DNA from: Zootoca vivipara
Lineage: Eukaryota
NCBI RefSeq assembly: GCF_963506605.1
Contig: NC_083282.1
Span: forward strand, 73,966,001-74,030,000
DNA: 64,000 nucleotides
Reading direction: 5' to 3'
A program made the translations under genes and the position numbers. The notes under the pieces were generated by a model that saw only the letters and a program-made list of their open reading frames with translations, had not been told where the DNA came from and searched no databases. Shown here piece after piece: positions 14,879 through 64,000 of this stretch (positions are counted from its first letter, which is position 1; every line of letters starts with the position of its first letter).

Positions 14879-15154
<276 letters not shown>

Positions 15155-15992: not shown

Positions 15993-16330
15993 AGGTAAAA
16001 GGTAAAGGTAAAGGGACCCCTGACCATTAGGTCCAGTTGCAGACAACTCTGGGGTTGCAGTGCTCATCTCGCTTTATTAGCTGAGGGAGCCGACGTACAG
16101 CTTCCGGGTCATGTGTTCGCTTCTGGCGAACCAGAGCAGCACATGGAAACACCGTTTACCTTCCCACTGTAGCGGTACCTATTTATCTACTTGCACTTTG
16201 ACGTGCTTTCAAACTGCTAGGTTGGCAGGAGCAGGGACCGAGGAACAGGAGCTCACCCTGTCGCAGGGATTTGAACTGCCGACCTTCTGATTGGCAAGCC
16301 CTAGGCTCTGTGGTTTAACCCACAGCACCA
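15993..16330 (-). mobile_element. Sauria SINE (near full length)
   Basis: (AAAGGT)n on + = (ACCTTT)n tail; body GAGGGAGCCG..CAGCTTCCGGGTCATGTG..CCTATTTATCTACTTGCAC; tRNA-like head at the right end. Confidence 0.85.
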
Positions 16331-17913: not shown

Positions 17914-18210
<297 letters not shown>

Positions 18211-18425
18211 TGATAGCTGAAGTACATTCTTTGTTTCCAAGTTTAAATTGGGAAGTAAAGCCCAAAAGACTTACTTTAGCAGGTGTAAGAATTTGGTGGC
18301 CTCAGATGATCAATAAAGTGTGTTTCTGGGCAAGTCGCCATTCTGACTCAACCAGAGATGCACTAAAGAGCTGCTTCCAAGTGCAGGTATTTCTGCTGCA
18401 AAGGGAGGGTGAGGAGGGGCCTACA

Positions 18426-18553
18426 CAGGTCCGGCTCTAGGGGTAGGCTGGGTGGCGCGGGGCGACAGGGTGCCGCGCTGCGCCCGCCCACCAGGACGGG
18501 GGCGACAGAGTGATCGCCGCACCAGGGCGCCCGACATGCTTGAGATGGCCCTG
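18426..18553. mobile_element. Short GC-rich hAT-like MITE
   Basis: CAGGTCCGGCTCTAG ... CTTGAGATGGCCCTG termini; exact 8-bp TSD GGCCTACA (18418-18425, 18554-18561). Confidence 0.8.
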
Positions 18554-21014
18554 GGCCTACAGACACAAGGATATGGACGCCCTTGGGCTGCTGAAACTAC
18601 TTGGGGAAAATTCAGAATGTTAGTATGAACTTGCTCCAGCTGGTCTCTTATCTTGAGATACTTAACTATGATAATAACAAGCAATAATAATTGGTGAGTA
18701 ACGCTGGCATTTCAACATTATAGCTGCCACAAATGTGCGTGGACTCACTTTTCATTCTGGATAGTTCTACAGCATTGGAAGTTTTCAATTCCAGAGCCTG
18801 GAGCTTGTACAGTCCTCTGGTCCTTTTTAGTTCTGGCCCAAGGCTCTTAATATCAGGTATCTTAACTCAAGAGTGTGTGTTATTGTTATGTCCATGTTCC
18901 CCTCCTCACCCTCACCCTCTCTCCTTGTATGCTAGCCATAGTCTGTTCTATTAACCAATCAGTAATCTCTCTGACTCCCGCCCTGTTCTGATTTGATTGG
19001 TGGAGAACTGGATGGGATTTAAATATCTAACGTAAACAGAGATTCTGGTCCTGTGCCTGTCCTCTTTACAAGGGAATGGTGCTGAAACTGGGTCACTGAG
19101 CTGGGAATAGCTGGGTAACCAATGGCAACAAGGAACTCTGCAGTTCCCTCCTATCCTTGCTGCCAGGGGCAGTTTGTTGTTGCGTTTATAGGAGCTGTTT
19201 AATGAAGTTTGTGTTTGGGTGTGAGTGGCATTGTAGGAACCAGTTGGTGGTAGCAACACACGCGTGCCAGAAATAAAAGCCATGTGAGCAGAGTTTAGCT
19301 CAGGATGTCCTTTGCCCTGCCCTTCCCATTTCTGTCATATGTGACTGGCATGTCAAGAAGGGCATAAGCGCATGGAGGGATCAAGCATCATTGCTGTGAG
19401 CAGGTCAGGTATTTATTAGGGTGAGGAGAGAGGCACTGGAGATATAGCAGGAGCATGTGGTTACGGCACTTCAGCAGTGACAGAATGTCTGCCAGGCATA
19501 TTCTGTTCAATATATTCAACTCAAGATTTCCCTGCTCTTCTCTGAAATTATCTCCGATGCCATATATACAAAATCCTCATGTGCGATCAACCCAGGAAAC
19601 TAGCTTCTAGTTCTTGTGGATGTGAGAATAGATTTGAGAATTCAGTTGTGTAAGCTGGAGAAATGGCTAAACAACATTTCCAGATGTTGGAGGAAGACCT
19701 TGGTGCTGTGCGTGATCCCTAGCTCCTCCTCATGACTAGTAGAAGCATAAAAATTTAAACAAAAACGGAAAAGCATGCTTAATTTGAATAATTCATGCAG
19801 GTTGCAGAGTTCAGCTTTTTCTCACTTCAGAATCTGGATATCCGGTGCTGTTGCCAATTATCTCTGCATAGAAAGTTTTGCCCATGCAACCTCAGTAACC
19901 TGGTGGTTTATTAGGTTGTGGATGTTTTTGCCTGGAACTAAAGTTGGGAGCTGACATACAAATAATGTGTGATGTGTAAGACACTCTGTGGCTAGCCATG
20001 GAGCAGAAGGAATGGGGTGGTGGTGATTCCATTGAGGACAAAAGCAGCAGCCAATGTGACCAGGATGTCTTTTTAACAGGGATCACTCTCTAAATTCATT
20101 TGCACAACAGAAGCTCTAGTTTCTTTTCTTCCCCCTTAGCCTCCAGAGGGGGCCCCCATCTACTCTGGAGCCCCCCCCCACCCTCTGGAGCAGATGTTAG
20201 GAACATACAAGAAACCAAAGGAGAGGAAGAGTTAATACTGTAATCCTATGTTTTACTAATGGCCTTAAACTTTACAGAACATTAATATCGCATTCAGGTA
20301 CTAAATAGTTCATTCACATTCTTAATTGCGGTCAATGTATAGCAGGTACCACACAAGAAATTGAGGAATGAGCTCTTTTCAAAAGCCAGTTTCAAAAATG
20401 CTGCTGTCCTGTGTTTTGAAAACCTTTGCCCAATAATCCTAGCTTCCACAGAACTTGTGTCAGCTTTTGGGTGTTAACGCAACAACAGTTTCCCCATATA
20501 ATTGGTGCATAGCATTAGCAATACAGGAAGAAAGGACAATTCCCTATAGATTTGCTGCCAGTACCTATTTCCCTCCCCTTGAGGTGCTGCAGCAAAGGTC
20601 TCTGAGGTTTACGTTAACCCTGCACAAATTAGCTGCTGAAGTTTGACAGGATCAGAGTGGAAGCTGAGCCAGCTGGAGGCCATAATTAGACAGACCTGGC
20701 CTTGCCAGCTGCTTTTGTTCTTCAAAGGTATCTACTCTGCATCCTGCCCCCCTCCCTTCATATGAATTCTGCTGTGAAGTTACTAATCTGCTGACGGCAG
20801 CACCAGCTCTCTTTCATGGACATGTCATGAGGACATGTGAGAGGCTTCCTTGAAAACCTGTGTGTTCAACATTTTCCCCATCCTAAAGTGCCACAAGGAA
20901 ATGATGAATAGATAAGGTTTTTAATCTATTAGTTTTCCTATACTTGGTTCTCATTTTTTACAAGATGGACCATCTCACATCTGTGCTGGCTGAATCAGGG
21001 TATATGCATATGCT

Positions 21015-21298
21015 ACATAGGGACATGGGAAGCTGCTTTTTATTGAGCCAGACGATAGGTCCATCTAGCTGAGTACTGTCAATGTTGATAGACAACATAC
21101 TTCTAGAATCTCGGGCGGGTCTCTCCTGACCTACCTGGAGATGCCAGAGATTGAGCCTGGGACCTTTGGTTTGCAAAGAAGACATCTGAAGGCAGCCTTG
21201 TTTAGGGAAGTTTTTAATGACTGATGTCTTAATGTATTTTTAATCTTTTGTTGGAAGCCGCCCAGATGGGCAGGATATAAATAATATATTATTATTAC

Positions 21299-21329
<31 letters not shown>

Positions 21330-21361
21330 TAATCAGGGACTCTACCACTGAGCTACAGTCC
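21015..21361 (-). mobile_element. tRNA-derived SINE (- strand) interrupted by an L2 3' end (+ strand, ~21179-21332, (TTA)n tail)
   Basis: SINE head ...GGGACCTTTGGTTTGCAAAG / CAGGGACTCTACCACTGAGCTACAG is split by GACATCTGAAGGCAGCC...GGAAGCCGCCCAG..(TTA)n, which matches the L2 end at 44100-44270 in reverse. Confidence 0.65.
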
Positions 21362-21394
21362 TTCACCTCTTCTTTGTTCCTTGGGCATCTAAAC

Positions 21395-21530
21395 CAGGGT
21401 TTCCCAAACTTGGGTCTCCAGCTGTTTTTGGACTACAATTCCCATCATCTCTGACCACTGGTCCTGCTAGCTAGGGATAATGGGAGTTGTCACCCAAAAA
21501 CAACTGGAGACCCAAGTTTGAGAAACACTG
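21395..21530. mobile_element. Palindromic hAT MITE (same core as 1102)
   Basis: Inverted arms TTTCCCAAACTTGGGTCTCCAG / CTGGAGACCCAAGTTTGAGAAA around the GGACTACAATTCCCATCATC core. Confidence 0.8.
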
Positions 21531-21683
21531 ATCGATTCTAAACCTTTGCAATGCTGTTAATATTTTATTCTAACCTTTGAAATAATAAATAATGCTATTC
21601 TCTTGGTAGTCAGTTCCGCTACGTATTGGCTGCGAAGTATCTCTTAAACCCAATCCTGAGCTGTTTCTGCTTTTTTCTGGTAG

Positions 21684-21833
21684 GTGCCTATTGCCTCTCT
21701 GTCTCAGATTTTGACAATGCCAAAGGACTCAACGTGAAGCATTACAAGATCCGCAAGCTAGACAACGGTGGCTTCTACATCACTTCCCGCACACAGTTCA
21801 GCAGCCTTCAGCAACTGGTGGCCTATTACTCCA
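21684..21833 (+). CDS. SRC: SRC coding exon, SH2 ([50 protein letters not shown])
   Basis: 150 nt, ctggtag|GT...TCCA|gtaagt. Confidence 0.97.
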
Positions 21834-22074
21834 GTAAGTGCCATTTCGGCTTCTGATAATGCAGAATTTCTTTGCAGAATACAGAGGCTCTGTCTAAGGT
21901 ACCTTGAACTAAAAAGCAAAAGTGAACCTGCTTGGACAGCATCTTATGGGCACCATACGTACTTAAAGAGATTGCCACCCCCTACCATAAAACAGCATAT
22001 TGGCTCCATATATTGGCTCCCTGTATATTATTCCATGATAATTAAGCAGACTGATCCACCATGATTTTGAGCAT

Positions 22075-22214
22075 CAGTGTGTCTGGCTTGTAACCAGAAG
22101 GTTGGTGGTTCGAGCCCACCCAGGGATGGTTGTGGGCAGAATTTCCTGCATTGCAGGGGGTTGGACTAGATGACCCTGAGAGCCCTTCCAACTCTAGAGT
22201 TCTATGATTCCATG
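22075..22214 (+). mobile_element. tRNA-head SINE with CR1-derived tail
   Basis: Box B GGTTCGAGCCC followed by the CR1 3' end CCTGCATTGCAGGGGGTTGGACTAGATGACC..CCCTTCCAACTCT..TTCTATGATTC. Confidence 0.65.
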
Positions 22215-23214
22215 AAATCAAAAGGTTGCAATGGTATTATAGTCCAGCTGCCACTGCACCACAAAGCTGCAAATCTCAGTTTGCCTGATGTCAAGCAGGA
22301 TGGCAAGGCTGAACAAGGTGCGCCCTTTCAATAGGTTTCTGCTGCAGAAGAAAATAAGTTGGAAAGATACATATTTTCTGGATACTTCTGACTTGGGTAG
22401 ACACTGGCAGAGTGTTAGAGACAGGAAGTGATTGTCAGGTGACGGTGGTGAAGAATGGTAAATAGTGCAAGAGAGAGCTGGGATGAAAAAAGAAAGTCGG
22501 TTTACATTTGGTAATTGAGATGGTAGGGAAAAGAAGCTGGGCAGCTTCTTGGATGATGTCCTTTCTTCAGACATAGATGGTTCTGATCATGTTGGTTGTA
22601 CTTCATTGCATCCAAGGAAATATGCAGTTCCTAATTGAATTATGGGATTATTGTTTGCTGTGAACTGGCCCTAAATTGACCTGCCACTTACTGAGTCCCA
22701 ACTGAACAACCATTTAGTTGTCTTCAGAGCTGCAAGATATTAGTTGTTTCCAAAAAAATGTGCACTTCTACCTGATAATGTAGAATTGTGGGCAACTATG
22801 AAATGGTTATAAGATTCTGGCAGCAACCTGGAAATTCTGGTGGGCAATCGGTATGAAATCAGACCAAGACATATATATCTGACTTTCATAACTGTATTTT
22901 AAGATTTTAAAATCTTTCACTTCTTAGCATGGTAAGATGTTTGATGAATCATAGATAGTGCTTCTGAACTTGTGATAGGTTTCTTTCTTTTATGTTGGAG
23001 TCAGTATATGGCATTATGAACCTGGTTCTAAGAGGACTCTTTTTGGGAAATTACTGTTTTTTGCAATTTCTTTTCTCTGAGTTAGGTAGAACAATTAAGT
23101 AGGGCAATGAATCCTTATAGGAAATGCAGTCTGAGACACCTTAGAAAGTGTTCTGGTGCTTGTCCCATTTAAGTGCTTCCTTGGGATTTGAAGAACATTT
23201 TATATAGAAAAATC

Positions 23215-23219
23215 TCACA

Positions 23220-23296
<77 letters not shown>
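23215..23296. repeat. Compound microsatellite (CA)n(GA)n
   Basis: Seen directly. Confidence 0.95.
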
Positions 23297-23298
<2 letters not shown>

Positions 23299-23407
23299 AG
23301 AAATAGAGACTCAAGGAGATTCAAACTGGGTTTGAGAAGGAGAGAAATAGTTCCATATTCTTAAGACACGTTTCACTTAAAGTGATGTTTCTTATGCCGT
23401 ATTGTGA

Positions 23408-23596
<189 letters not shown>

Positions 23597-23758
23597 TAGC
23601 AGGTACCTGAGCCACAAAGTTCGCCTTCTAGCCCGATGGGCATATTTCAGGCCATGTCTTTCAGCAAGGGGAAATTAGGCAAGGCCCCCGGCTGCACAAT
23701 CTGTAGGAGGCATGGTACTAGCTTAAGTGTTCATTAGTGAAAAGGATGCCTTTGTTAA

Positions 23759-24052
<294 letters not shown>

Positions 24053-24155
24053 TAATGTTGGGAGCAGAAACATTTTACCCAGTCATTCAGAACAGGCAGC
24101 ATTTGGAAAATGAGCTTGTCAATTAGGCACCATCTAAGCACCAATTCACATAACC

Positions 24156-24297
24156 CAGGCATGGCCAAATGTGGCCCTCCAGATGTTTTGGGACTACAAC
24201 TCCCATCATCCCTAGCTACCGGTAACAGGACCAGTGGTCAAGGGTGATGGGAATTGTAGTCCCAAAACATCTGGAGAGCCACATTTGGCCATGCCTG
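24156..24297. mobile_element. Palindromic hAT MITE
   Basis: CAGGCATGGCCAAATGTGGC / GCCACATTTGGCCATGCCTG; TSD ACATAACC/ACATAGCC (7/8). Confidence 0.85.
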
Positions 24298-24719
24298 ACA
24301 TAGCCAAAAGGATGTGTTACAGATGTGGGCTGAATGGATTTACGCGGTTGTTTGTGTGGTTTTATTGTATCTGTGTGGGGTTTATTACCTGTTTGTTTGT
24401 AAATTGCTTTGGGTTGCTCTAGGCAAGATAAAAGTGACTTTAACCAATTTAATAAATAAGAATAAGCACTGAAGAGGCCTTGTGATTGTTTGGCAAACAA
24501 TTCAACCCTTGCTTCCCATGTTGCTGCAACATTTGGGGAGTGTAAATTACAGTTCAATCAAGATGTGAGGAAAAACTAATGAAGGGTTTTTGTTAAGGCT
24601 TAAATTCTTTCTACACTCTTTAAAAAACAGCTCGTTGGCTCAGTTAAATTGTATTGTTTGCTCTGTGAGATTAAAACAGCTGCAAATTCTGCAGAGGGAA
24701 AACATCTGCAAAAGTTTAG

Positions 24720-24890
<171 letters not shown>

Positions 24891-25215
24891 TAGGATGCTG
24901 CTTTTCCAGATCTGTATGACTCTAGGCCACTGTTGGAAGATTGCCTATTTCACATGTTTGCCTATAATAGTATCTCCCTGCATACAAATATTTAGCATGA
25001 CAACTAGCTGTTGTAAAATCTGTCTCCCTGACATGCTGCTTTTCTGTTGGTGGGGGGTGTTACTGGCGAAGCATTTTCCAGTGCCCTTTGGTTTCCTTCA
25101 AATCTATATAAGATCTCTGACCATGTCTTGCTCCCTTTTTGGCATTCGAGCCTCTTCCCATATCTCATTTTCTGTGTGCGCCAGCTGAGACAGAGTGCTG
25201 ATGAACATCTGTTTC

Positions 25216-25766
25216 TTTCTTTTTCTTTTTAAACATAATCTTTATTAAATTTACCGAATAAACACTGGTACAAATCAATAAATTTTGTCAACATTTCCAG
25301 TTGTTTTCTTATAGTGTATATGATATCAATTATATTTCACAGCCTAAAAAATGGTAGACAAAATAAATCACATATCTTGAAATAAACCTATGAAGAGATT
25401 TTTTTAAAAAAAGAGGGGAGAGGAAAAAAGAAAAGAAAAAAAAGAAAAGAAAAAAGCAAAAAAGAAATGTGTGTGTGTGTGTGTGTGTGTATCAATTCCA
25501 ATCATATTTCTAATATTATGGTTCTGCAACTTCCCTTCTTCTTCTTCTGTTTCTAACAGTCTTCCCTTTTTTTGGTGTTGTATCTTTCATTATCCATATA
25601 CAATTTTTATTTCTTATTTTATAAATATGCCTAGGTGAAATATTTACAATATTTTAACATATATTTTCTTAAAGACCTTACGACACTTGGCATTGCTTTG
25701 GTCATACATCTTAATTGTTCTTGTTCCTCAAACTGACTATTAAGGGTTTGTGGTGCGGTTTTTGTC
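25216..25766 (-). mobile_element. 5'-truncated retrotransposed insert (L1/Tx1-like 3' UTR or retrocopy)
   Basis: Exact 16-bp TSD GATGAACATCTGTTTC (25200-25215, 25767-25782); T-rich left end with TTTATT at ~25240 = poly(A) signal and A-rich tail on the - strand. Confidence 0.75.
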
Positions 25767-25949
25767 GATGAACATCTGTTTCAGTCAATGCAACATTAGC
25801 AGCTATGCAAGATAGGCAGCCCACCTGATATTGGCTGACAAATACCTCCTTTTTCATAGGTTTAGCTTCATTCAGTCCCTTTACTTTTCAAGAGAACTGT
25901 AGGTTCATTTGACTCCAAGTTCATTGCTTTTGCTGGTTGGTTTGATATT

Positions 25950-25951
<2 letters not shown>

Positions 25952-25999
<48 letters not shown>
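25952..25999. repeat. (AC)n microsatellite
   Basis: Seen directly. Confidence 0.95.
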
Positions 26000-26001
<2 letters not shown>

Positions 26002-26149
26002 CTTTACTACATTAGTCTATATCTTCAATAGTTACCTGATTCCTGGTAACCCTGGGCTGACTAGATGGCTGAATAGAGCTGGCTGATTTGACTAATGCTT
26101 TATGGGTAAGCTCTGATAGATCATAATAATCATTAAAGCAAATTTGTAT

Positions 26150-26870
<721 letters not shown>

Positions 26871-26960
26871 TGACAAATTGCTGAGTACATTTCTATGATT
26901 CTATGCCCTGGATTCCTACACTTTTGCTATTGCCGGTGAATGATGCAGAAGTAGTGGTAG

Positions 26961-27257
<297 letters not shown>

Positions 27258-27720
27258 TAGCAAACTCCTCACTCACTTGGAAAGGGACAAGGATCTCCAA
27301 GGCAGAAGAATACTATCTCCTACAGTGCTAATAAAGAGCAGGCAGGCTTTATCTCTGATAAGAGTGAAAGGCAGCAATTTACCCACCCACACCTCCAGCA
27401 CTCTGTGGAAATGTACAGTATATCTGATCTTTGTGGTGTGTTGCTTAGCTCCAAAACTAGAGATAAAAAAAATAATCCCTCTGCCTGTTCTTTACAGAGG
27501 ATCTTTAAAGAGGAAGCAGAGCATTTTAATGCTGTTTAGGAGACAAAAGTTGTGAGGTTGCATCCTGTGGTTTGGTAGAGTAGATGCAGCCCATGGACTT
27601 GTGGGTTCGCCCAACCCCCTTGGTTTATCCTATTCTTTGCAATTTAATATATTTTGTTTGTGTTTTTATTTTTAACTGTTGTACGTCATTGTGAGTGCAT
27701 GGACGCTAGGCAGGTGGGAT

Positions 27721-27996
27721 AGACCCCCTTGTGGGGGGCCGGACTATATTTTGAAAAAAAAAATGAACGAATTCCTATGCCCTACAAATAACCCAGAGAT
27801 GCTTTTTAAATAAAAGGACACATTCTACTCATGTAAAAACACCAGGCAGGCCCCACAAATAACCCAGAGCTGCATTTTAAATAAAAGGACACATTCTACT
27901 CATGTAAAAACACGCTGATTCCCAAACCATCCATGGGCTGGATTTAGAAGGTGATTGAGCCGCATCCGGCCCCTGGGCCTTAGTTTGGGAATCCTG
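27721..27996. mobile_element. hAT (Charlie-type) non-autonomous element, left end missing, internal ~70-bp tandem duplication
   Basis: Same body as 49632-49863; unit CACAAATAACCCAGAG..CATTCTACTCATGTAAAAACAC occurs twice. Confidence 0.75.
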
Positions 27997-28745
27997 ATAT
28001 ACACCAACAATAAGACCTTTCACAATTATGGGAGACAAAATCAGCAAGTGTCTTATGGAAAATGGATTTCTCCAGAGTTTTAATTCCTCTGTAGAGCTCT
28101 GCTTTCCTTTTGAAGCCCCATTCATATATCACTGTTGCAAAATGATAGCCTACCGGGGGGGGGGACCACTCCCTTTTATTCATGTTTCAGTTCCACATCA
28201 GTAATATTATGGATGACCTTATGAGTGGCTCAAATCCCTGAAGTGGTGTACAGCATGAGAAAAATGGCATTGAATACAAGAGAAGTTTGATAAACAATAA
28301 AATCGTTTCTACAGACTATAAAAAACATCCGTATGTTACAAACACATTACAGGATTGAGCTATGGGGAAAATCCCTGTGTCCCATACCCAGCTAGTGTCT
28401 AGCTCTCTGTTTGCTGGCAGGAGAAGAAGAAAGGTAACAGGCTTTGTGTGAGAGATGGGAAGTTTGTGACCCTCCAGGTGTTACTGGGTTCCCATCATCC
28501 CTGGACGTTGTCCTTGCTGGCTGGGGCTGATGGGAGTTAAGAGTCCAGTATCTGGAGGGCCACAGGCTCCCCCTCTCTGCTTGATGCCAGACTTTAGGAA
28601 CACTACTTAAATCGCTCCACTGTAATGCAAATTGAACTGTACTTGGTAAACAGGAGCGTAAGTTGTTAGCAACACTTCTGTATATTTTGGCTAAACTGTT
28701 CTACTGAAGAGCCAGGTTGCATTCTCCTTTTCTGAGAAGTGATAA

Positions 28746-29057
<312 letters not shown>

Positions 29058-43868: not shown

Positions 43869-44093
43869 CAGTAATACCTCGGGTTACGAACGCGATCCGT
43901 TCCGGATCGCAGTTCGTAACCCGAATAGTTCGTAAACCGAACGCGATGGGCGCCGCCATTTTGCGCATGCGCAGATCGCGCGATCGCGCCGCTTCTGCGC
44001 ACGCGCGCGCGCGGCGAAAACACTTCCGGGGTTGCGCAGTTCGTAACCCGAACTGTTCGCAAACTGAGGTGGTCGTAACCCGAGGTACGACTG
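43869..44093. mobile_element. Young CpG-rich Tigger/pogo-like MITE
   Basis: TA|CAGTAATACCTCGGGTTACGA ... TCGTAACCCGAGGTACGACTG|TA; CpGs largely undecayed. Confidence 0.88.
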
Positions 44094-49032: not shown

Positions 49033-49296
49033 TTAGGTGCCAACCACATTGGGATCATGAGCAGAGTCCGGCAGCTGGGAGCCAGAGCAGTGATACAAGA
49101 AACAATTCCCCCAGCAACTGTAGCAGATGAGGAACAAGGCGGCCAAGAAGACCAAGGCACAGATTGTGCAAGGTTTCCGCTCCAACAGAAAGCTCAGTAG
49201 GTAGAAGCCCATGAACACTGAGTGACTGAACCACAAGGCTGGGTTGAGGGGCTTTGGGATGAGGAGAACAGGCAGTAACCACTGGAGGCAGTACAT
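49033..49296 (-). CDS. BLCAP: Bladder cancer-associated protein (BLCAP/BC10), complete 87-aa single-exon CDS
   Basis: [70 protein letters not shown]... is the conserved BLCAP sequence; ACCATG Kozak; known SRC-BLCAP synteny. Confidence 0.98.
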
Positions 49297-49863: not shown

Positions 49864-50225
49864 CTCTATTGGTTCCTTCTTGTAGCCTATGTGGGAAGAG
49901 ACAGAAGATGCACAAATCACTTGTGGCCTTCTTCTATCCCATGTACAGGTGATTGTCACAGGTGTTCCTCTATGTAGTTTGAAAACCATTATGCAACCAA
50001 GGTCAATTTCATTCTACAATGTTGTCAGTACTTGAGAACACAGCATCTGAACACACACAACAACTGAATTCATTCACACACACTCCTCTCTCTCCCTTGC
50101 TCACACAGACACTGCAATAAAGTTGGAACATGAAAAGATCAGCACATCTTCAGAGTTCTTCTTGATTTTATTTTCTTCATTATTTCGAGACCACTGTTGT
50201 GCTATATTGTCCAAGTGTGCAAGTA

Positions 50226-50474
50226 CAGTGGTACCTTGGTTCTCGAACTTAATCCATTCCGGGAGTCTGTTCGACTCCTGAAACGGTTCAAAAAGCAAGG
50301 CGCGGCTTCCAATTGCTGCAGGAGCTTCCGGCACTTGATCAGAAAAAGCGGAAGCTGTGTCGGACGCCCAGCTTCCAAAAAATGTTCGCAAACCGGAACA
50401 CCCACTTCCAGGTTTGCAGTGTTCAGGAGCCGATTTGTAGGGAACCCAGTCGTTCGAGCACCAAGGTACCACTG
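50226..50474. mobile_element. Tigger/pogo-like MITE
   Basis: TA|CAGTGGTACCTTGGT ... ACCAAGGTACCACTG|TA. Confidence 0.88.
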
Positions 50475-50510
50475 TATCTGCTTCAAATCTTGCCTCAGTC
50501 TTGAATTCAC

Positions 50511-50755: not shown

Positions 50756-51179
50756 GCTGCAGCTCTCAGTCATCATTGCTTCATCTACAAACAGGAGGCA
50801 GAAGCAAGAGAGTCGGAAAGAGAACTACTGAAAAAGCACAGTTCAAATAATACACAGCTTCCCCGAATACAAGTATCACTAAGGCTATGGCCACTACAGA
50901 GACAAATGCAAAGCAAAGCCTAGAACTCCATGCCCTGTCACTTGAGCTTCAGACAAGAGGAAGCAACTATGTTTTTGCATTATGAACGTTGAACAACTAA
51001 GAGGAAAACTTACTGTAGCCCTTCCAGCAAACAGCTAATTGTTAAGCAAGGAAGGAAAAGAATAATTCTTTATTTTCTGAAGGCCAACCATAGGAAAAGA
51101 GAGAGACCAGGATATTCTGGGCTCAATCCAGGTGGATTTTCTATATATACTCCATTGTGAAGAATTTGTCTGATGTCAC

Positions 51180-51571
51180 TGTGAGCATTTTCACCCCTCC
51201 CATTCTGAAAATCTGGTGATATCTGCTGTTGGGAGGGAACAGTTAGGAATTGTTACTTTGTTGTTTTTCATTCCTGACTCTGCTCTCTGCTGTGTGCTGT
51301 GTGCAGTTTAATATCTTCTGTAGACAAGATGGCTAAGTGAGAGGCTGTAACACTCACAAAGCCAGATCTGTAAATATTCAGTAGTTAATAGAAATAAATG
51401 AGGAATGTTTTGAAACCTCTACAAATGCTTCTGCTGTTCACTGCTGATTTGGTGCTCATAAAGCCCAGTTATGAGTCCATGATTCCCGGGTGTATGCTGA
51501 AGGTGTTCCAGACGTCCTGCCCAGGCATAGGGGCCTAAGAAGACCTGGACAGATCCTGGCATTTACCCACA
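51180..51571 (+). repeat. 5' LTR (392 bp)
   Basis: TGTGAG...ACCCACA; AATAAA at 51393-51398; no difference from the 3' LTR found by eye. Confidence 0.97.
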
Positions 51572-51573
51572 TA

Positions 51574-51592
51574 TGGTAGCAGGCGGATGGTT
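51574..51592 (+). promoter_or_regulatory. Primer-binding site complementary to the 3' end of initiator tRNA-Met
   Basis: TGGTAGCAG-gc-GGATGGTT versus the reverse complement of the vertebrate tRNA-iMet 3' end, TGGTAGCAG-a-GGATGGTT; starts 2 nt after the LTR. Confidence 0.85.
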
Positions 51593-51881
51593 GCTGGTAG
51601 CAGACTGGTGGTTGCAGATGGCTATTGATGGTTGGATAATTGGATGTTTCTGATCCATTTCCATCTGATGCTGCACATCGGAGTTGAGCTGTGAGCTGAA
51701 GCTGTTTTTCAAGCTGCTGTTTGATTTACAGAAAGGTATGTTGCTGGCTGCCAAGAAGACAGCAGAGACGCTTTTCCAGTTTGCCTGTTAATTGTGCTGA
51801 GTGGGGAGAGAAGTTGCTGAGAGAGTCAAGAGTATTTGGGGTGCATGAAGGGAAGTGTCTTGCTGTTAACTAAACACAGGC

Positions 51882-54800
51882 ATGGCTTCTGCACATTCTG
51901 GCCAGATGTCTCTATCTTTTCCTCTCCTTACACCAGAGACCTATCCTACATGGCAGGTCAAAATGAAAGCACTTTTACAAAGGGAAAAGCTTTACCATAT
52001 TATAGAAGATGACCCCCCTAATGAGGATGATGATGGATGGCCAGCGTGGCATGAGGCAGACATGAGAGCCAGGGGGACAATTATTCTGAGTGTCCAGGAC
52101 CAGTTGTTGGTCAACTTGGAGAACCAGCAGACTGCACGGGCTGTTTGGAATAAACTTCGAGATATGCATCTAAGACAAAATGCAGGATCCAGTGTGCTTT
52201 TCTTTAAAAAGCTGTGTAGGCTGGAATTGCAGAAAGATGGTGATTTGCCCAGCCATCTAGCCCAATTAAAACGTCTCAGACAGGATCTTGTCCAGCGAGA
52301 CTTAAATATTTCAGAAGCTGTTTTTGCAATGCTTATCATAAACAGTTTGGATGAATCTTATGATGCTGTAGCTGCTCAATTGTCGTCTTTGCCCAATGAC
52401 CGTCTAACAGAAGATTATGTGTCTAGCGTGCTCTTGAATGAGTGGGATCGCAGACAGACTGCTAGAGAAAGCAGGGACAAGGCTGTTGGAAATGCCTACA
52501 AGCCTTCAACAGGGGAAAGTGAAAGTGTTGCAAAAGCTCTTAAAATGCGCCGCTGTTTTTCTTGCGGAGAGGTCGGCCATTTTAAAAATCAGTGTAAAAA
52601 CTCTTCAAAGAAGAAGGGCAACTTCAAAGGCAAAGGGGGAGGAGGCCGAAAACCCCAAGGGCCAGCTGCATCAAAGGCTTTGATTTCACGCAGTTCTAAT
52701 CAACTCACACGTTCTGTTTTTGTTGTCGACTCAGGAGCCACAAGGCACGTGGCCAATGATAAAAATCTCTTTCTTCATCTTGAGAAACAGGGAGGAGCAA
52801 TTCATCAAGCGGATGGAACGACTATTAAAAGTTTGGCTCAGGGAACGGTTTCTTTGCAGAGCCTTAATGCAACAGTTAAAAATGTTATGTATGCTCCTCA
52901 TTTGCAGGATAATCTCTTGAGTGTTTCTCAGCTAGACGCTCAAGGATTTAAAGTGGTGTTTGCAAACTCTCGGTGTGAAATTCTTCGAGACAACAAACTC
53001 ATTCTTTATGCTAAGTGTGTTGATGGTTTATATGTATTGCCTTTTGTTACAGGTACAGCTGCTGGAGCAACTAAAGAAACTGAAAAGGCGTGCTGTAATA
53101 TATCAGTAGATAAGAATGAGAAATTGCATAACCATTGTATTCATGATTATCATCGTTTGTTTGGTCATTTGCATTTCCAGGCAGTAGGTAAAATGCAAAA
53201 TATGGTTGAGGGCATGAAAGTTCAAAAGTGTCCTTATCATATGAAATGTGTCTCATGTGCAGAGAACAAAATTAAGCAAGCTCCCAAAGGTACAAAATCT
53301 GGGAGGGAGGTTAAGAAACCTTATGAGATTGTGCATGCAGACTTGGTTGGACCTCTAGCGCTCTCTAGAGGAAACTCATGTTATTTTTTGGTTCTGATAG
53401 ATGCCTATTCTAGATATGTTTGGGTCTATATGTTACAAAAGAAGTCTGAAGCCTTCTCTAAGTTTCAAAAATTTTGTGCATGGCTCAGGAATGTTCACGA
53501 TGAGCATGTACGTTGTCTTTTCACTGACAGGGGTGGAGAATTTTGTTCAGAACAGTTTGAAAACTTTACTGCAGAACAGGGCATAGAGCACATGACTGCC
53601 ACGCCCAGATCTCCATGGCAGAATGGTTTATGTGAAAGAGTAAACCAGACCTTGCAACAAGGAATTAAAACTCTGTTGCATGATTCAGGCCTACCCAACC
53701 CCTTTTGGGCTGAAGCTCTATCGTGTTTCACCTATATTTACAACCGCAGATATCAATCAGCCATTGATTGCACCCCATACGAAATGCTGTTCAAAAGGAA
53801 ACCGTTTGTAAAACATTTAAAAATTTTCGGTTCTGAAGTTTGGGTGCACACTCTGCAAGGTGACAAACTGAGCAAATCTGGTCAACATGGCATTTTTCTA
53901 GGTTATGAAAAAGGTTCTTATCGTGTGCTGATGACAGACACAAACACAATTAGGCTGACCAGAAGCATGGATTGTAATCCAAAATGGGACAAAGTTGGCA
54001 TTTTTCAATGTCATCCCATTTCAGATGATGAGGTGGTGAAACCAATTAACAAAGAGGCAAAACCTGTAATTGATGCTGATGGTAGCACAGATTCTGACAC
54101 TGATACAGATGATCAGAATGAAAAGACCTCTTTTAAGAAATCAGATGGGTCTGACACTGATCTAGAGGTAGAATCTTTGCCAGATACAGGTCACCATTCT
54201 CCCAAGGAGGAGGAACCAGACCCAGAGGATCCCAGAGTATTGCGTAGATCTGAGAGAACTACCAAGGGACAAGCACCTAAACGATTTTCTAAAGAATTTG
54301 CTAAAGCTGCTATTTCAGATATGGCTGCCACTAGCAATCCAAACTCAGTTTTTGAACCAACTAACTACAAAGAGGTTCAAAATTTACCTGAAAAAGATGC
54401 CGAACCTTGGCTTAATGCCATGAAAGCTGAATTGAATTCCCTAAAGCAAAATGACACGTGGGAATTGGTTCCAGTAGAACCAGGCATGAAACTTGTAGAC
54501 AGCAGGTGGATTTACAAAACCAAGACTGATCAGACTGGTAAAGTGGTCAGATATAAAGCCAGATTAGTTGCACGTGGTTTTTCTCAAGTTCCTGATCAGG
54601 ACTATCATGAGACATATTCACCGACAGTCAAATTTGAGACAGTTAGGCTGTTGATGAAAATTGCTGCAGAAGAGGGCATGACCATATCTCATCACGACGT
54701 AAATACTGCGTTTTTGTACGGAATTCTCAATGAGAGTATTTACATGTCACCGCCAGATGGAGTGCAGATAAAAAAGGGAATGGTGTGTAAATTAAAAAAA

Positions 54801-55886
54801 TCCCTGTATGGTCTAAAACAAAGCGCTCGATGCTGGCACACTAAGCTGACAGACGTGCTGTTTTCCTTAGGTTTCCAGCAAGGAAAGGCTGATTCTTGTG
54901 TTTTTGTTAAAGAATCTAACCAGCACAAATTGTACTGCATTTGTTTTGTGGATGATATTTTGTTTTTCTGGAAGGATGCAAATATTTACAAAACCACTCT
55001 TGCAAAGCTGCAAAAGCATTTTGATATGAAAGACCTAGGGGAAGTCAGCAATTATCTCTCACTGGAAGTAGAGAGAAATAAGCAAGGTGATGTTTTGCTG
55101 CATCAATCACGTAAGATAAATGATGTGATTGAAAAATTAAATCTGACAGATGCCAATTCTGTAGACACCCCCATGGTCACAGGGTACCAACATGATACTA
55201 ATGCTAATGTTTTTCCTGACACTACATTGTTCAGAAGTGTGTTGGGTAAACTTAGTTTTATAGCAAGGTGCACAAGACCAGACATTGCTGTTAGCGTAAA
55301 TTTGCTCAGCAGATATGTAAATAAACCTACAGTGCAAGACTGGAAGGCGCTGAAACGCATAGTTAGGTATTTAAAAGGCACTATGCATTACAGGTTGAAG
55401 CTTACTAGCCAAAACTCTGGAGGTCTTGAGATCTATGCCGATGCCAGTTTTGGTAGTGATACAACTGATGGCAAGAGCACCTCAGGTGTGTGTTATTTGT
55501 ACAATCAGTGCCTATTTGATTGGTCTTGTAAGAAACAGGCAACAATAAGCATGAGTTCATGTGAAGCAGAACTCAACGCTTTAAATTTTTCCCTCATGAA
55601 TGTAGAGTGGTTGTTGCAACTATGTGAGGATATGAGAGTAAAAATTTGTTGTCCAGTTCAAGTTTATCAGGACAACAAAGCCTGCATAGAACTAATCCAT
55701 TCAGAAGGGTGCAAGCAAAGAACAAAACATTTGCTAATCAAATTGCACCGTGCCAGAGAATGCATTCAGAAAGGAGTTGTAAAAGTCTCATATATGCCAG
55801 GGAAAGAAATACCTGCTGATGCTTTGACTAAAGCTGTTAATAAGGAACAACTTGGTATATATGTAAAGAAATTGCTTTTGTGCTAG
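51882..55886 (+). CDS. Copia-type Gag-Pol polyprotein, 1334 aa
   Basis: Zn knuckle CFSCGEVGHFKNQC (52554-52595), protease VVDSGAT, integrase HRLFGH..CVSC and D(VHADL)-D(TDRGGEF)-E(NGLCER), RT YKARLVARGF / HDVNTAFL / LKKSLYGLKQS / FVDD, RNase H YADASF / EAE / QDN / ADALTK. No stops or frameshifts. Confidence 0.98.
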   Translation: MASAHSGQMSLSFPLLTPETYPTWQVKMKALLQREKLYHIIEDDPPNEDDDGWPAWHEADMRARGTIILSVQDQLLVNLENQQTARAVWNKLRDMHLRQNAGSSVLFFKKLCRLELQKDGDLPSHLAQLKRLRQDLVQRDLNISEAVFAMLIINSLDESYDAVAAQLSSLPNDRLTEDYVSSVLLNEWDRRQTARESRDKAVGNAYKPSTGESESVAKALKMRRCFSCGEVGHFKNQCKNSSKKKGNFKGKGGGGRKPQGPAASKALISRSSNQLTRSVFVVDSGATRHVANDKNLFLHLEKQGGAIHQADGTTIKSLAQGTVSLQSLNATVKNVMYAPHLQDNLLSVSQLDAQGFKVVFANSRCEILRDNKLILYAKCVDGLYVLPFVTGTAAGATKETEKACCNISVDKNEKLHNHCIHDYHRLFGHLHFQAVGKMQNMVEGMKVQKCPYHMKCVSCAENKIKQAPKGTKSGREVKKPYEIVHADLVGPLALSRGNSCYFLVLIDAYSRYVWVYMLQKKSEAFSKFQKFCAWLRNVHDEHVRCLFTDRGGEFCSEQFENFTAEQGIEHMTATPRSPWQNGLCERVNQTLQQGIKTLLHDSGLPNPFWAEALSCFTYIYNRRYQSAIDCTPYEMLFKRKPFVKHLKIFGSEVWVHTLQGDKLSKSGQHGIFLGYEKGSYRVLMTDTNTIRLTRSMDCNPKWDKVGIFQCHPISDDEVVKPINKEAKPVIDADGSTDSDTDTDDQNEKTSFKKSDGSDTDLEVESLPDTGHHSPKEEEPDPEDPRVLRRSERTTKGQAPKRFSKEFAKAAISDMAATSNPNSVFEPTNYKEVQNLPEKDAEPWLNAMKAELNSLKQNDTWELVPVEPGMKLVDSRWIYKTKTDQTGKVVRYKARLVARGFSQVPDQDYHETYSPTVKFETVRLLMKIAAEEGMTISHHDVNTAFLYGILNESIYMSPPDGVQIKKGMVCKLKKSLYGLKQSARCWHTKLTDVLFSLGFQQGKADSCVFVKESNQHKLYCICFVDDILFFWKDANIYKTTLAKLQKHFDMKDLGEVSNYLSLEVERNKQGDVLLHQSRKINDVIEKLNLTDANSVDTPMVTGYQHDTNANVFPDTTLFRSVLGKLSFIARCTRPDIAVSVNLLSRYVNKPTVQDWKALKRIVRYLKGTMHYRLKLTSQNSGGLEIYADASFGSDTTDGKSTSGVCYLYNQCLFDWSCKKQATISMSSCEAELNALNFSLMNVEWLLQLCEDMRVKICCPVQVYQDNKACIELIHSEGCKQRTKHLLIKLHRARECIQKGVVKVSYMPGKEIPADALTKAVNKEQLGIYVKKLLLC

Positions 55887-55902
55887 ATTTTCATAATGGT
55901 CA

Positions 55903-55919
55903 GAATGAAAAGGGGGAGG
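55903..55919 (+). promoter_or_regulatory. Polypurine tract
   Basis: GAATGAAAAGGGGGAGG immediately before the 3' LTR. Confidence 0.9.
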
Positions 55920-55920
55920 T

Positions 55921-56312
55921 TGTGAGCATTTTCACCCCTCCCATTCTGAAAATCTGGTGATATCTGCTGTTGGGAGGGAACAGTTAGGAATTGTTACTTT
56001 GTTGTTTTTCATTCCTGACTCTGCTCTCTGCTGTGTGCTGTGTGCAGTTTAATATCTTCTGTAGACAAGATGGCTAAGTGAGAGGCTGTAACACTCACAA
56101 AGCCAGATCTGTAAATATTCAGTAGTTAATAGAAATAAATGAGGAATGTTTTGAAACCTCTACAAATGCTTCTGCTGTTCACTGCTGATTTGGTGCTCAT
56201 AAAGCCCAGTTATGAGTCCATGATTCCCGGGTGTATGCTGAAGGTGTTCCAGACGTCCTGCCCAGGCATAGGGGCCTAAGAAGACCTGGACAGATCCTGG
56301 CATTTACCCACA
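55921..56312 (+). repeat. 3' LTR (392 bp)
   Basis: Direct repeat of 51180-51571, followed by TSD GTCAC. Confidence 0.97.
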
Positions 56313-58031
56313 GTCACTTGCTTGCTGGGAGATGCATAGAAGAGGATAATCATGGACTGTGTCTAAAGTACTTCAGTCTGAAGGAATAAAAAACTTTTAA
56401 TGACAGACTAATCAAGAACTGTTCTTTCTTTCTTTCTAAAAAATGATTTACAGCTCAACATAAAGGCCAAGGTCTTTTGGAAAACCCATGTTAAAGAGAA
56501 TTTAGCCATAAATTTGTAGAATCTAGGCAGTGAAATTTCCCCCACCCAGGGATGGATTCAATTTTCCTTTATCAGGTATGTGGCATGAACGAAGGCAACA
56601 AAACATGGCAGATCAGGTTGTACAGCCTTCTCAATGCATCACACATACCAGTACTGTCAACAACAAAAAAGGAATGACAACCCATCCCACAATTTAACTT
56701 TAACCACAATTTAATAAACCATAGTTTAAAAAAGTTTAATAAATGGGGTAGCTTAATGGGATGGTGACACAAGACAGGGTTTTCTCAGTAGTTTTGTGCA
56801 GCATTGTGGAACTCCTATCCAGGGGAAATTCAACTACAGTATCCCACATGTTTATAAGATTCAGGTGCCAACTGAAAATGTATTTCTTTGTCTGGGTTTG
56901 CAACATTATGCATTGGACTCTACCCCAGCAAAGTTTTATTGCCCTTGTACTGTTTTTAGTTCTTGATACAGATTTTAATGTTTTATTTATTGCTTTATCA
57001 TGTTTGTATTTTATGCTCATTGTTACCCAGCCTGGGTTCCCATGGGAGAAAAGGTGGGATAGATGAACAAACAACAATATTGATCAGTTGTTTAAGTGCA
57101 AATATTGTTCGGGTGCAAAGTTGTTATCATGAATTTAACAGAACAAAGTTACCAACTTCAGAAGAAATTTTATAGTGCTCCTTGACAATGGCTTTCTTAA
57201 TGCTAGTCATAACAAAACATGAGATACACATGGCAAAATCTGCCCAAGATTCATTTGAAGGTAAGTAGCAAAAGACTGTGAATATGAATTTCTCCTTTGT
57301 GGCAGCAAAGAGTGCCTCTCGGGAACACTGAGAGAGAGATGACAAAGAACTAGCAAAGGGATGCAATGCTGTTTCGCTTAACTCTCAGTTGAAAATCTAT
57401 CATACATGGCTCTGTTGAGCTGTGGCAGTATTATGCACATTGCCATGGAAACATCAGATAAGACCAGCTTGAGGACATCTGACGATCTTGTAGAATCCTA
57501 CTCCGCTGACTACATCAAATACCTTGCTAAGATCAACAGAACTGAGGTAGAGTGGCTTACTTTGTTCTCTGCATTTCTCTCATAGCTGGTGCTGAGAGAA
57601 GATCATATTTGTTTTTGATCTGCTTGCACAGAAGTTGGACTGTGCCTACCAAAGCACTGAAGCATAAAGTTACTGAGAGTACCCTCAAAAAATCATTCTG
57701 GCAAATACTCTCCTTAGGGTGCAGATGAGAGAGATTCCAATGCCTCTGGGGTTGTCTTCATTCTTACACAGCATGATAATGTTAGAACCACATGTTCAGT
57801 AGAACTATTTCTTTCCTCCAGCAGCAGAACTAGTCATAATGGACTGTCTGACTTTTCCACTCCCACGAACCTCAGCTGTGATACCACTCTTCCCAGGTAC
57901 TCTCTCTCTTGCCAAGGACTCCATGAGTTGGCTCTTTGTACTATCATTCTTGAGATACAGTACTATGTTTTTCAGAACATAGTCTGAAGTAGTTTTTCAC
58001 TTGTGAGATGCAGCTGCTCGTTCCTGTAGAT

Positions 58032-58167
58032 CAGGCATCTCCAAACTGCGGCCCTCCAGATGTTTTGGCCTACAACTCCCATGATCCCTAGCTAACAGGA
58101 CCAGTGGTTGGTGAAGATGGGAATTGTAGTCCAAAACATCTGGAGGGCCGAAGTTTGGGGGTGCCTG
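58032..58167. mobile_element. Palindromic hAT MITE
   Basis: CAGGCATCTCCAAACT / AGTTTGGGGGTGCCTG; TSD CTGTAGAT/TTGTAGAT (7/8). Confidence 0.85.
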
Positions 58168-59479
58168 TTGTAGATCATTCTGCTATCCAGGGTCTCACAG
58201 GCAGGAGGCTGCTGAAGTGGGAATGAGAGTCTGTCATACGTTACATGACTGCTTCCCAAGTCAGAAGCAGTTTATATATGATATAGGCTAATCTACAGAT
58301 TTATACAGCATCTAAAATAAATGCTTTCTTTACTGCACTTTTTCTTGGCTTGAGTGTCTTCACCAGGCTGAATTATTTCCCTTAGCATATGACATTTTAA
58401 TTTCAGTAGGCTTTAAATCAGTCATTTCTAGTCATCTTGCCAAAAACTGTCCAGCACTCTCCCATATATTGCTCTGTTTAGAGAAAGGAAGACTCACAGC
58501 TCAGTGATACAGCACATACTGTGCATGCAAATGTTCCATGTTCAGTTGCAGACACCCCGTGTTATGAAAGGATCTTTGACAATAGGGTGGGGAAGGCCTT
58601 CCACCTGAGACCCTAGGGAAGCAATGCTAGTCAGAGTGGATGATACCAAGCTAGTTGGAACAATGGACTGACTTAATACAAAGCTGATTACCGTATTTAA
58701 AAGGCGCAAGGCACACCTTCAGGTTTAGATCTATACAGCTTTCCAGTATGGAATAAGGTCAAAGGGCAAACAAGAGAATGGGAAAAGTTAATTGTGCAAG
58801 TGCTGTAGGAGAAGTAAGAAATACACTGAACAACCACATCTCCTGCTAATGCCAAGATCATGGTGATGCTAGGTGCCACGATAACCTTTGTCAATTGTCA
58901 CCGATATTGCCTATGCTATGTTGGCCAGCACATATTAGGGCTATGACTTGCATTTTAATCAAACCCTTCCATTCAAATCACTGAGAAGAAATTATGTGAT
59001 AGCTCTCACAACTGCAATAGCATCAAAGTACAAGAAACTGAAAATGGCAATTTTAGGCTTCTGCCTCAACACTTATCTCACCATTCCCCAGAACCACTTT
59101 TCTATTCCCCTTACCATTTAGAAGCAGTCACATGCCAACTACATGAGAGCAGCATGTGGGAGTGATATGGAACAGGTTGTAGCCAACCCTCTCACAGAGT
59201 CCCCTACTCAATATCTATGAGGAAAGAAAAATTGAGGATTGCAAAACTAACCATGCTTATTGATTCCAGATTATCTGGAAAAGAGATACCTGTACAACAA
59301 AAGCCCTTAAAAACGACATCCTGTTCACTTTCGAAACACACACAAATCCAGTTCAGCACTTTCAATACTTTAAGGTGGAAACAATAAAAAGATCACTGTT
59401 TTACTGATAACTAAAATTATTCTCTGCTGGCTTGATGAAAGAAATTAGGATCTTCACGTTCATGCACCATTAATAAATA

Positions 59480-59826
59480 CAGGTGAAACTCGGAAAATTA
59501 AAACATCGTCAAAAAGTGCATTTATTTCAGTAATGCAACTTAAAAGGTGAAACCAATATATGAGATAGATGCATGACATGCAAAGCAATATATGTCAAGC
59601 CTTTATTAATTGTAATTATCTGTCGTTAGGCGGGTCAATTATAAATGAAATGTAATTAATGAAATGTAATAGCGATGTTTATTTTTGTATTATTGTAACT
59701 ACTTGTTTTATTACTGTGGAATTTCCAAAAGAAAGCATTTGTAAAAATTAAAATAAAAAATAATAAGTTGCATTACTGAAATGAATGCACTTTTTGACGA
59801 TATTCTAATTTTCTGAGTTTCACCTG
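59480..59826. mobile_element. Tc1-like MITE
   Basis: TA|CAGGTGAAACTC..GTAATGCAACTTA and TAAGTTGCATTAC..GAGTTTCACCTG|TA, ~64-bp TIRs. Confidence 0.88.
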
Positions 59827-60884
59827 TACAACTGATGACAGGAAACAACTCTGTCAAAACAAAATTCAGCAACTAGGAATGTGCAAAGGATAGAGCCTCT
59901 ACAGCCCTCAAGTAATCCCTGTTGCTCCAAAAATTATCATCTGAACAAACCTTGCTGTTCTTATGCAGCTTGTAAAATAATAAATAAAAAACACTTTAGC
60001 AATTGTAGCTGGAGCCCACTTATTAAAATCTACCACCAAGGTCACCTGGACTGTAAGTAAAGTATGTTTAATACTAGCAGGGGAATAGACAAGGTAGATA
60101 AAAGCATGCTCAGCTTCATCATAAATGATGTCTCTTTCCCTGCTGCTTCCATTTCCCTATTCTCTTTGGTGAGGTTTCTGGGAGTCACGTCACTCTGAGA
60201 TTACCCATAGCTTTTACTACATTCTCTCTACAGGTTTTCATGTCAGTATACTTCAATTAGCAAAACAAAATATTCAGCCTCAAAGGTTTCCCCCTTTTTC
60301 CTTTAGCAATTGCATTCTTAGAAGTTTAGAGGATGCTGTTTTACTGTGACAACCACACAGTAAGAGACCGAGATTTCAGAAAAAGCAGGAAGAACAATTA
60401 TGGGTGTAAGATGTGGACTTTAATACCCAAATAACTGTTCTCTAACTTCTATGAACTATAAGGATGATGGATCACTAGTTAGTAAAGCACTCCTAAAAAA
60501 AGGGGCATCGTGTTATTCAGCAATATAAACTTTTTGGATAAAAGAGAACAAAAACCTGTATTAACCTGCTTTGCAATTACAGCAAAGTATCTATCTTGAG
60601 TGACTTTCTTCACCAGATAAACCTCAAAGGGAACAATGGAGAAATGCTTTGAATCCTATGGGCTTTATACAAAGATTGACTTCAAGGATTTATAGGCAAG
60701 TTGAAATTTCCCTTCACATTTTCCCCATTTATACAGTAGCAGCTGACAGTGGCATAATGCAAAGTAGTTTACCTGTGTCAAAATGAATGAAGGTAAGCTA
60801 ATGGGCTGGCACAGGTGGAGGGAAAATGGAGATATTTGTACCTCCAATTTGCTTAGAGTGCTTGCTGGCTGTGGGGGGTAGCAT

Positions 60885-62757: not shown

Positions 62758-63084
62758 TAAAGGTAAAGGGACCCCTTTAGGGTAAAGGGTTGCGGCGCTC
62801 ATCTCGCGTGATTGGTCGAGGGAGCCGGCGTACAGCTTCCAGGTCATGTGGCCAGCATGACAAAGCCGCTTTTGGTGAACCAGAGCAGCACACGGAAACG
62901 CCGTTTACCTTCCCGCTGTAGCGGTACCTATTTATCTACTTGCACTTTGACGTGTTTTCAAACTGCTAGGTTGGCAGGAGCTGGGACCGAGCAACGGGAG
63001 CTCACCCTGTCGCGGGGATTCGAACCGCCAACCTTCTGATCAGCAAGCCCTAGGCTCTGTGGTTTAACCCACAGCACCACCCGC
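62758..63084 (-). mobile_element. Sauria SINE
   Basis: Same family as 15993-16330; retains CpGs and box B (GGATTCGAACC on +). Confidence 0.87.
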
Positions 63085-64000
63085 TGTGGTCATCATTATT
63101 GCAAAGGCTGCCCAAATCAAGTATTGCCTTGACTCCAGAAAACACAGGAAAGTTTTACCAAACAGATTCTGCCATTTCTACAATCCATTTAGTTTTGAAG
63201 TATTCATACTTTTGGTGCCAACTGTGCATGGGGCCCTGTACAGAACATAGACAGTGATCAGAAAGGAAGTTACTATGCATAAGGACAATAATTTATTGAG
63301 GGGGTTGTGTAGCAGCTGCCAGTGTGGTGAGCTATGGAGCTCAGCACTGGTGCTGTTGCAGTTTACTTGGACAGTGCTAGGGTGGGGCATGACAGCAATG
63401 AGATTGGGGCTACACAGATGCATTGACAAAGCTACGCTGGTGCTCCCACTCAGACTAGCTGTCACTCTGCCCTATGTCCACATCAGGAATAGGCAAACTC
63501 GGCCCTCCAAATGTTTTGGGACTATAACTCCCATCATCCCTAGCTAACAGGACCAGTGCAGTGACACTGGTGTCAGGACGGCAGGCAGATCCACCACACC
63601 AGCTGCTACTGGCAGTGACTGGGGAGGGAGGGGGAGAGAGAGAACTTGCAGCCCTTGGCCTAATGCCATGCATGCATGGCCATGAGAGGGGGAAATGGGG
63701 AGGAGGGATGGCAAAAGGAGAGAAAAAACAGGGCAGAGGAAAAGAGAAGAGTAGTGCCACACCCACTGTTCATTCAGGCCCGCCCACTACTGGCATTTAG
63801 TTTCTGACAGATCACACACAATGGAATTTGGACAACTGAAAAAAAGTCTCACCACCCCTGATTTAATGAGTAATATTTTAAGATTAGAAAAGTACTGCTA
63901 CTTGACAACATCAGTCCATGGTCATCTAGTGACAGTCCACCCTCCTCATTTTATCATTTCCCTGCCAGATGCCTCTAAACAGCACACAGGCAATATATGA

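Follow-up and report, generated by a model that had tools for sequence, protein, structure and literature searches.

A probable very recent Ty1/copia insertion beside a BLCAP exon of Zootoca vivipara, from a family of near-identical copies with a mostly mismatched primer-binding site

The window analysed here comprises 64,000 nucleotides of Zootoca vivipara (contig NC_083282.1, positions 73,966,001 to 74,030,000) and contains no N. SRC-type tyrosine kinase exons were identified at 15000-29054 (plus strand), upstream of BLCAP, followed by a coding exon of BLCAP and by an LTR retrotransposon (Table 1). The element probably lies antisense in intron 1 of BLCAP, a placement suggested by the exon on one side and, on the other, by a CpG island that contains a donor-like site and lies 9 kb beyond the element, some 1-1.7 kb after the window ends. 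Aligned with 8 of the 14 other listed members, the BLCAP protein of the window shows 99% identity to a snake sequence, 97% to a gecko one and 93-95% to those of birds and turtles, which places the host among squamates; residue 27 (49215-49217, minus strand) is Val, being Met in all 8 of the other aligned vertebrate sequences. Simple scans of the element detected neither an antisense AATAAA nor a strong donor nor a long pyrimidine acceptor, and no effect on BLCAP is therefore claimed. Short MITE-like elements with TIRs were identified at 43870-44090, 50219-50481, 58027-58172 and 59478-59828, and a SINE-like element, which we take to resemble the Sauria/Squam1 SINE, at 62770-63085.

Table 1. Positions of the retrotransposon features and of the neighbouring BLCAP exon in the window
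Feature	Position	Strand	Remark
Host BLCAP coding exon	49033..49296	-	element about 1.9 kb upstream of exon, opposite orientation
5' TSD GTCAC	51175..51179	.	exact 5-bp duplication
5' LTR, 392 nt, TG...CA	51180..51571	+	one AATAAA at LTR position 214
PBS against the 3' 18 nt of host tRNAiMet	51574..51592	+	9 perfect pairs, 2-for-1 base bulge, 8 pairs
Second, decayed 21-nt PBS unit (tandem duplication)	51595..51615	+	never perfect, 72/72 copies
Predicted T-arm (tRNAiMet) pairing box	51641..51668	+	likely second part of a bipartite primer site
Single gag-pol ORF, 1334 aa	51882..55886	+	
gag (PF14223, aa 28-194) and CCHC knuckle (aa 225-238)	51963..52595	+	
Protease region (PF22936, DSGA)	52719..52949	+	
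Integrase	53130..53636	+	HHCC finger and core with D-D35-E (D549/E585)
Reverse transcriptase (PF07727)	54450..55178	+	
RNase H region	55419..55883	+	motifs YADA, RTKH, ADALTK
Polypurine tract	55907..55919	+	
3' LTR, 392 nt, TG...CA	55921..56312	+	no difference from 5' LTR
3' TSD GTCAC	56313..56317	.	

The element is an intact Ty1/copia retrotransposon (Pseudoviridae) lacking env, as its LTRs, 5-bp TSD, PBS, PPT and pol order all agree. The exact match between the two LTRs cannot be extended on either side. Pfam domains follow one another in the single frame as gag, PR, rve (PF00665), SH3-like and RVT_2 (E 6e-69), which together with an RNase H recognised by its motifs gives the order PR-IN-RT-RH with a copia-type RT; further pol motifs are KARLVARG and FVDD, and the assignment of the names YADA, RTKH and ADALTK to RNase H is presumably correct. 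Since only 34 nt separate the stop codon from the 3' LTR, there is no space for an env ORF. All the structures reported in the earlier note (two 392-bp LTRs with no visible difference, 5-bp TSD, PBS, PPT, a 1334-aa ORF, IN before RT and no env) were recovered, to which the bulge in the PBS and the tandem duplication of this site are added as features absent from it.

The genome searched comprises 1.44 Gb in 48 contigs. A search with the RT gave 70 matches at least 98% identical over all 243 residues, among the 150 matches listed, and exact patterns were counted 71 times for the LTR-PBS junction and 148 times for the LTR end, a count of ends that leaves only a handful of solo LTRs. Besides the window copy, 73 loci were examined: 71 with two LTRs, one interrupted by an insert (1.7 kb) and one partial; the two-LTR copies compared below are hence 72, the window copy and the 71 others. 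The LTR pairs of these 71 are identical in 58 copies, with one difference in 9, two in 2 and damaged ends in the last 2, the 5-bp TSD being exact in 64 and the frame complete in 60. An alignment of 71 copies, which includes the window copy and leaves out one internally deleted copy, has a mean pairwise distance of 0.49%; private substitutions are totally absent in 37 of them, among which is the window copy, and some copies are identical to each other. The window copy shows 9 differences to its nearest neighbours, every one shared with further copies. The LTR alignment and the genome-wide survey of copy number and divergence that had been suggested as checks thus gave identical LTRs and about 70 near-identical copies.

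The same 71 aligned copies fail the four-gamete test at 82-88% of the site pairs more than 100 nt apart, as is expected under template switching between co-packaged RNAs, and are heavily recombined, mosaic haplotypes. The ratio of synonymous to replacement variants is 45:20 among shared variants versus 27:33 among private ones (Fisher p=0.007). The family is under purifying selection, the synonymous excess implying that the variants that spread had passed through functional elements. Target sites present G at -3 in 45/64 and C at +3 in 41/64 (p<1e-12), an integrase-type palindromic motif common to the copies.

Divergence within LTR pairs has a mean of 4.4e-4 per site (69 copies); if rates of 3e-9 to 1e-9 are assumed, this corresponds to about 0.07-0.22 My, and these ages are upper bounds because LTR differences include reverse-transcription errors. 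Older LTRs of the family, 93-95% identical, were identified in the same genome as two of three candidate solos checked, the third (L135) having no match to the family LTR. The sequence data point to a family that is very young, likely transposition-competent and probably still mobile, and the earlier description of it as young and transposition-competent is supported by the identical LTR pairs (58/71), the full frames (60/71), the distance of 0.49% and the purifying selection. That the burst is recent but finished or silenced, the intact look reflecting youth only, is unlikely, although in two of two raw RNA runs, of which about 6% was read (tissue unspecified), almost no reads fall on the element and the LTR divergence would be compatible with no activity today. 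The 37 copies without private substitution, with identical copies among them, speak for mobility instead, the tissue of the RNA runs is unspecified and the LTR ages are upper bounds. No gag-only RNA splice joint was listed in the data examined.

The site had also been called probably polymorphic. A 616-nt contig of another sample (S6) follows the left flank from 51014 to 51180 and then departs from the element; the right flank has this base as its first one too, and the contig therefore fits an empty allele, as a candidate seen at the left junction only. Polymorphism at this site is weakly supported by it. In S6 the element variant has diverged by about 1% and is shorter by 22 nt at the primer site, which is what a single unbulged unit would give.

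Four further copia families were identified in the same genome (L051-L070) from the RT match list, with five copies sampled of each and RT-RH identities to the window element of 86%, 69%, 60% and 45%. In most sampled copies the frames are long and open and the two LTRs identical or nearly so, and several copia lineages are bursting at once in this genome, with two primer types side by side. A quick IQ-TREE analysis of RT-RH (40 rows, 28 of 240 database matches, long-branch warnings, no Mtanga, GalEa or corn-snake reference) places in one clade, with 100% SH-aLRT, the window element, the four families, a protein of the anguid lizard Elgaria (61%) and two further proteins (82% and 73%); arthropod, plant and fungal matches fall outside at 35-42%. 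The composition of the clade and the distance to the sister family (dN 0.075, dS 1.04) fit a long residence in squamates. Protein searches gave no close named non-squamate relative and no near-identical copy in a distant host among the top 120 matches of each, the named non-squamate ones being at 30-39%, and when shorter proteins were searched with the gag region one match (22%) resulted. The family thus appears likely to have been inherited within squamates. Capture of the LTR or gag from a GalEa element was also considered and rejected, as gag, PR, IN, RT and RH identities rank the families alike.

Horizontal acquisition, for which the element had been named a candidate, fares less well. A recent transfer into the lineage, with the family in its first burst, is distinctly improbable: the very low diversity (0.49%), the distance of about 1 in dS that separates it from the closest family of the same genome, an ENA protein 82% identical and a run labelled as another organism (X16), which holds a nearly unchanged element without unique flank, would favour it, but other repeats of this genome occur in X16 too, a pattern expected of low-coverage host DNA, the genome contains older family LTRs (93-95%), at least four related families are bursting beside it and the named non-squamate matches stay at 30-39%. 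The phylogeny proposed as a check places the family, in the quick tree, with the young families of its own genome and a lizard protein in one clade (100% SH-aLRT), and does not support a recent transfer over inheritance within squamates. Transfer between squamates or via an unsampled host may have occurred, as the ENA protein P0002 (82% RT-RH) would allow, an ancient transfer into tetrapods is left open in the published survey (PMC11889832), and the family may already be catalogued elsewhere. Last, an origin of the LTR identity by assembly collapse or gene conversion, in whose favour stands only the general risk for repeats, is extremely improbable, collapse being largely refuted by LTR alleles that are specific to a copy and common to its own two LTRs and by the resolved differences of 1-2 nt in 11 of the 71 other copies, to which the distinct TSDs with an integrase-type target motif are added.

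The unusual part of this family is its primer site, mismatched in most copies; apparently active copia in squamates is itself already known. The PBS is complementary to the 3' 18 nt of tRNA-Met(CAT) as encoded in this genome, having two bases for one after pair 9, and the predicted pairing is -30.0 kcal/mol in the bulged form versus -34.7 in the perfect one. The 21-nt unit is duplicated in tandem. Across the 72 copies the first unit has GC in 67, GA in 2 and the perfect A in 3 (bulge in 69/72), and the second unit is perfect in none. The extra base is present in both units, so the bulge is older than the duplication and the perfect first units probably arose by later repair. Linked sites within 20-170 nt distinguish the three perfect copies from one another, and their match to the tRNA is exactly 18 nt long, up to the normally methylated A, which we take to be m1A58. 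Judging from these sequences they were possibly repaired by templating from the primer tRNA, or they could come from one old event spread by recombination. Their frequency (3/72) is far below the approximately 50% of primer copying described for retroviruses (PMC7472051) and above that of Ty1 and Ty3, for which no inheritance of primer sequence is reported (PMC5371799).

The predicted pairing of the T-arm box is -28.4 kcal/mol, with 0/200 shuffles as strong, and is found in 3/3 copies of the sister family as well (0/200 shuffles each), although the box was picked after inspection and its pairing in the sister family may partly reflect shared descent. In the families with a half-tRNA site the box does not clearly pair (10, 90 and 175 of 200 shuffles reaching the same strength). 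Pairing of the LTR or leader with the tRNA's 5' half is no better than chance.

The anticodon-half site (half-tRNA; copia and Ty5 type) is the one identified in the 69%, 60% and 45% families, the window family and its 86% sister using instead the 3' end of tRNAiMet. In the 86% sister, a low-copy family, the PBS is perfect in 9/9 copies. In the 69% family it is imperfect in 15/20, and each of the 5 perfect copies among 17 examined is nearest to an imperfect one. Priming from the 3' end looks derived because the three outer families use the half-tRNA site; this direction of the switch is tentative, as the corn-snake element also has a 3'-end site with an extra base. As a further candidate, an LTR grown over an old half-tRNA site (10/12 match at LTR 289) was rejected, being absent from the aligned LTR of the sister and no better than shuffles.

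The preferred reading, which we consider very probable, is that the window holds an intact Ty1/copia element without env, inserted very recently and belonging to a family of about 72 near-identical copies that is likely to be still mobile and squamate-inherited. An RNA running from LTR to LTR would encode one Gag-Pol polyprotein and be packaged in two copies, the 3' end of a whole tRNAiMet would prime reverse transcription on an 18-nt, bulge-tolerant site, and the spare PBS unit and the T-arm box would probably assist it. Frequent template switching would make every copy a mosaic, and the integrase would insert the product with a 5-bp duplication. The primer sequence would usually not be inherited, as in Ty1, so that the bulge persists, and would likely be copied in on occasion (3/72 copies).

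The closest published case is the Copia element of the corn snake in OCA2 and CLCN2, described with about 85 near-identical copies, as possibly active and as the cause of two colour mutants (PMC4657000, PMC11948899). It resembles the window element in being a young squamate copia with an intronic insertion, and its PBS, read by eye in the supplement of PMC4657000, is a tRNAiMet 3' end with one extra base, thus a similar bulge. The corn-snake element is longer (5,832 bp versus 5,133 bp), its RT looks distant by eye, unaligned, a duplicated PBS was noticed only in the window family, and phenotypes and exonisation are shown for the corn snake whereas none is known for the window element. Motif searches of two corn-snake supplements found no perfect PBS of either type.

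Copia was reported in 23 of 24 squamates, all of the Mtanga clade and the only Copia clade in Lepidosauria, with 1004 copies in Podarcis muralis and 304 in Zootoca vivipara (supplementary table 3), and as absent from birds, mammals, turtles and crocodilians (PMC11889832); a Mtanga-like element is described as abundant in tuatara (PMC7116210). The window family may belong to the Mtanga clade, to which its squamate host and its lizard neighbour in the quick tree point indirectly. The surprise expressed in the earlier note at a copia in an amniote is tempered, since copia is common in squamates, to which the host belongs, and one squamate family has been published as apparently active (PMC11889832, PMC11948899). 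Neither PBS nor primer appears as a word in the main text of PMC11889832, and a literature search, mostly without subscription papers, found no paper on squamate copia primer sites.

Ty1 of Saccharomyces, as described in PMC5371799, shares with the window family the copia order and, as predicted for the latter, priming from the 3' end of tRNAiMet, a bipartite primer site and a primer normally not inherited; the window family differs in its complementarity of 18-19 nt, its single ORF and the 3/72 copies seemingly repaired from the tRNA. The GalEa clade also has a PBS for the tRNA-Met 3' end, and the termini of the 86% sister family (TGTTA...TATCA) are those of CoRex1/2 (GalEa), but GalEa is not reported in squamates in that source and the pol of the window element groups with half-tRNA-primed families of its own genome (PMC3587641). 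PBS type alone does not separate GalEa membership. In plants it is described as usually lineage-specific (PMC6317226).

Mismatch of the PBS as an escape from tRNA fragments has been proposed for the mouse ERVs ETn/MusD/IAP; these are Retroviridae whose primer is copied, Ty1-type elements being said to inherit strictly their own PBS (PMC7472051). A tentative extension to copia, in our judgement somewhat doubtful, is that bursting squamate families repeatedly evolve a deliberately imperfect PBS to escape tRNA-fragment silencing (69/72 here, 15/20 in the half-tRNA sister and apparently the corn snake, with the low-copy sister perfect in 9/9), that vertebrate copia, unlike Ty1, sometimes inherits primer tRNA sequence, and that this clade exchanged half-tRNA for whole-tRNA priming. 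If true, one genome would be a natural experiment on primer choice and on tRNA-fragment defence outside mammals. The pattern at the primer site provides a way to test by observation whether the trade-off that sets priming against silencing, proposed for mouse ERVs, acts on copia elements as well. What is known of where copia occurs in vertebrates is not overturned, and a well-resolved young family, with several beside it, is added to the squamate record. Such families are a likely source of polymorphic intronic insertions, as in the colour genes of the corn snake.

Some individual copies present structures of their own. One copy (L132) is split at 2045-3741 by an insert of 1,697 nt that bears terminal inverted repeats; this is likely a non-autonomous DNA transposon, of younger age than the copia copy around it. 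Copy L078 is internally deleted (2,465 nt), with identical LTRs and an exact TSD. The TSDs of four copies (L093, L105, L125 and L126) are mismatched at 1-2 of the final positions, which exceeds the mutation expected at such an age and is possibly the result of imprecise end repair. Finally, in copy L043 the leader and ORF start (element position about 556-728) are duplicated in tandem over 172 nt, with short microhomology at the bounds, likely through a slip of the reverse transcriptase.
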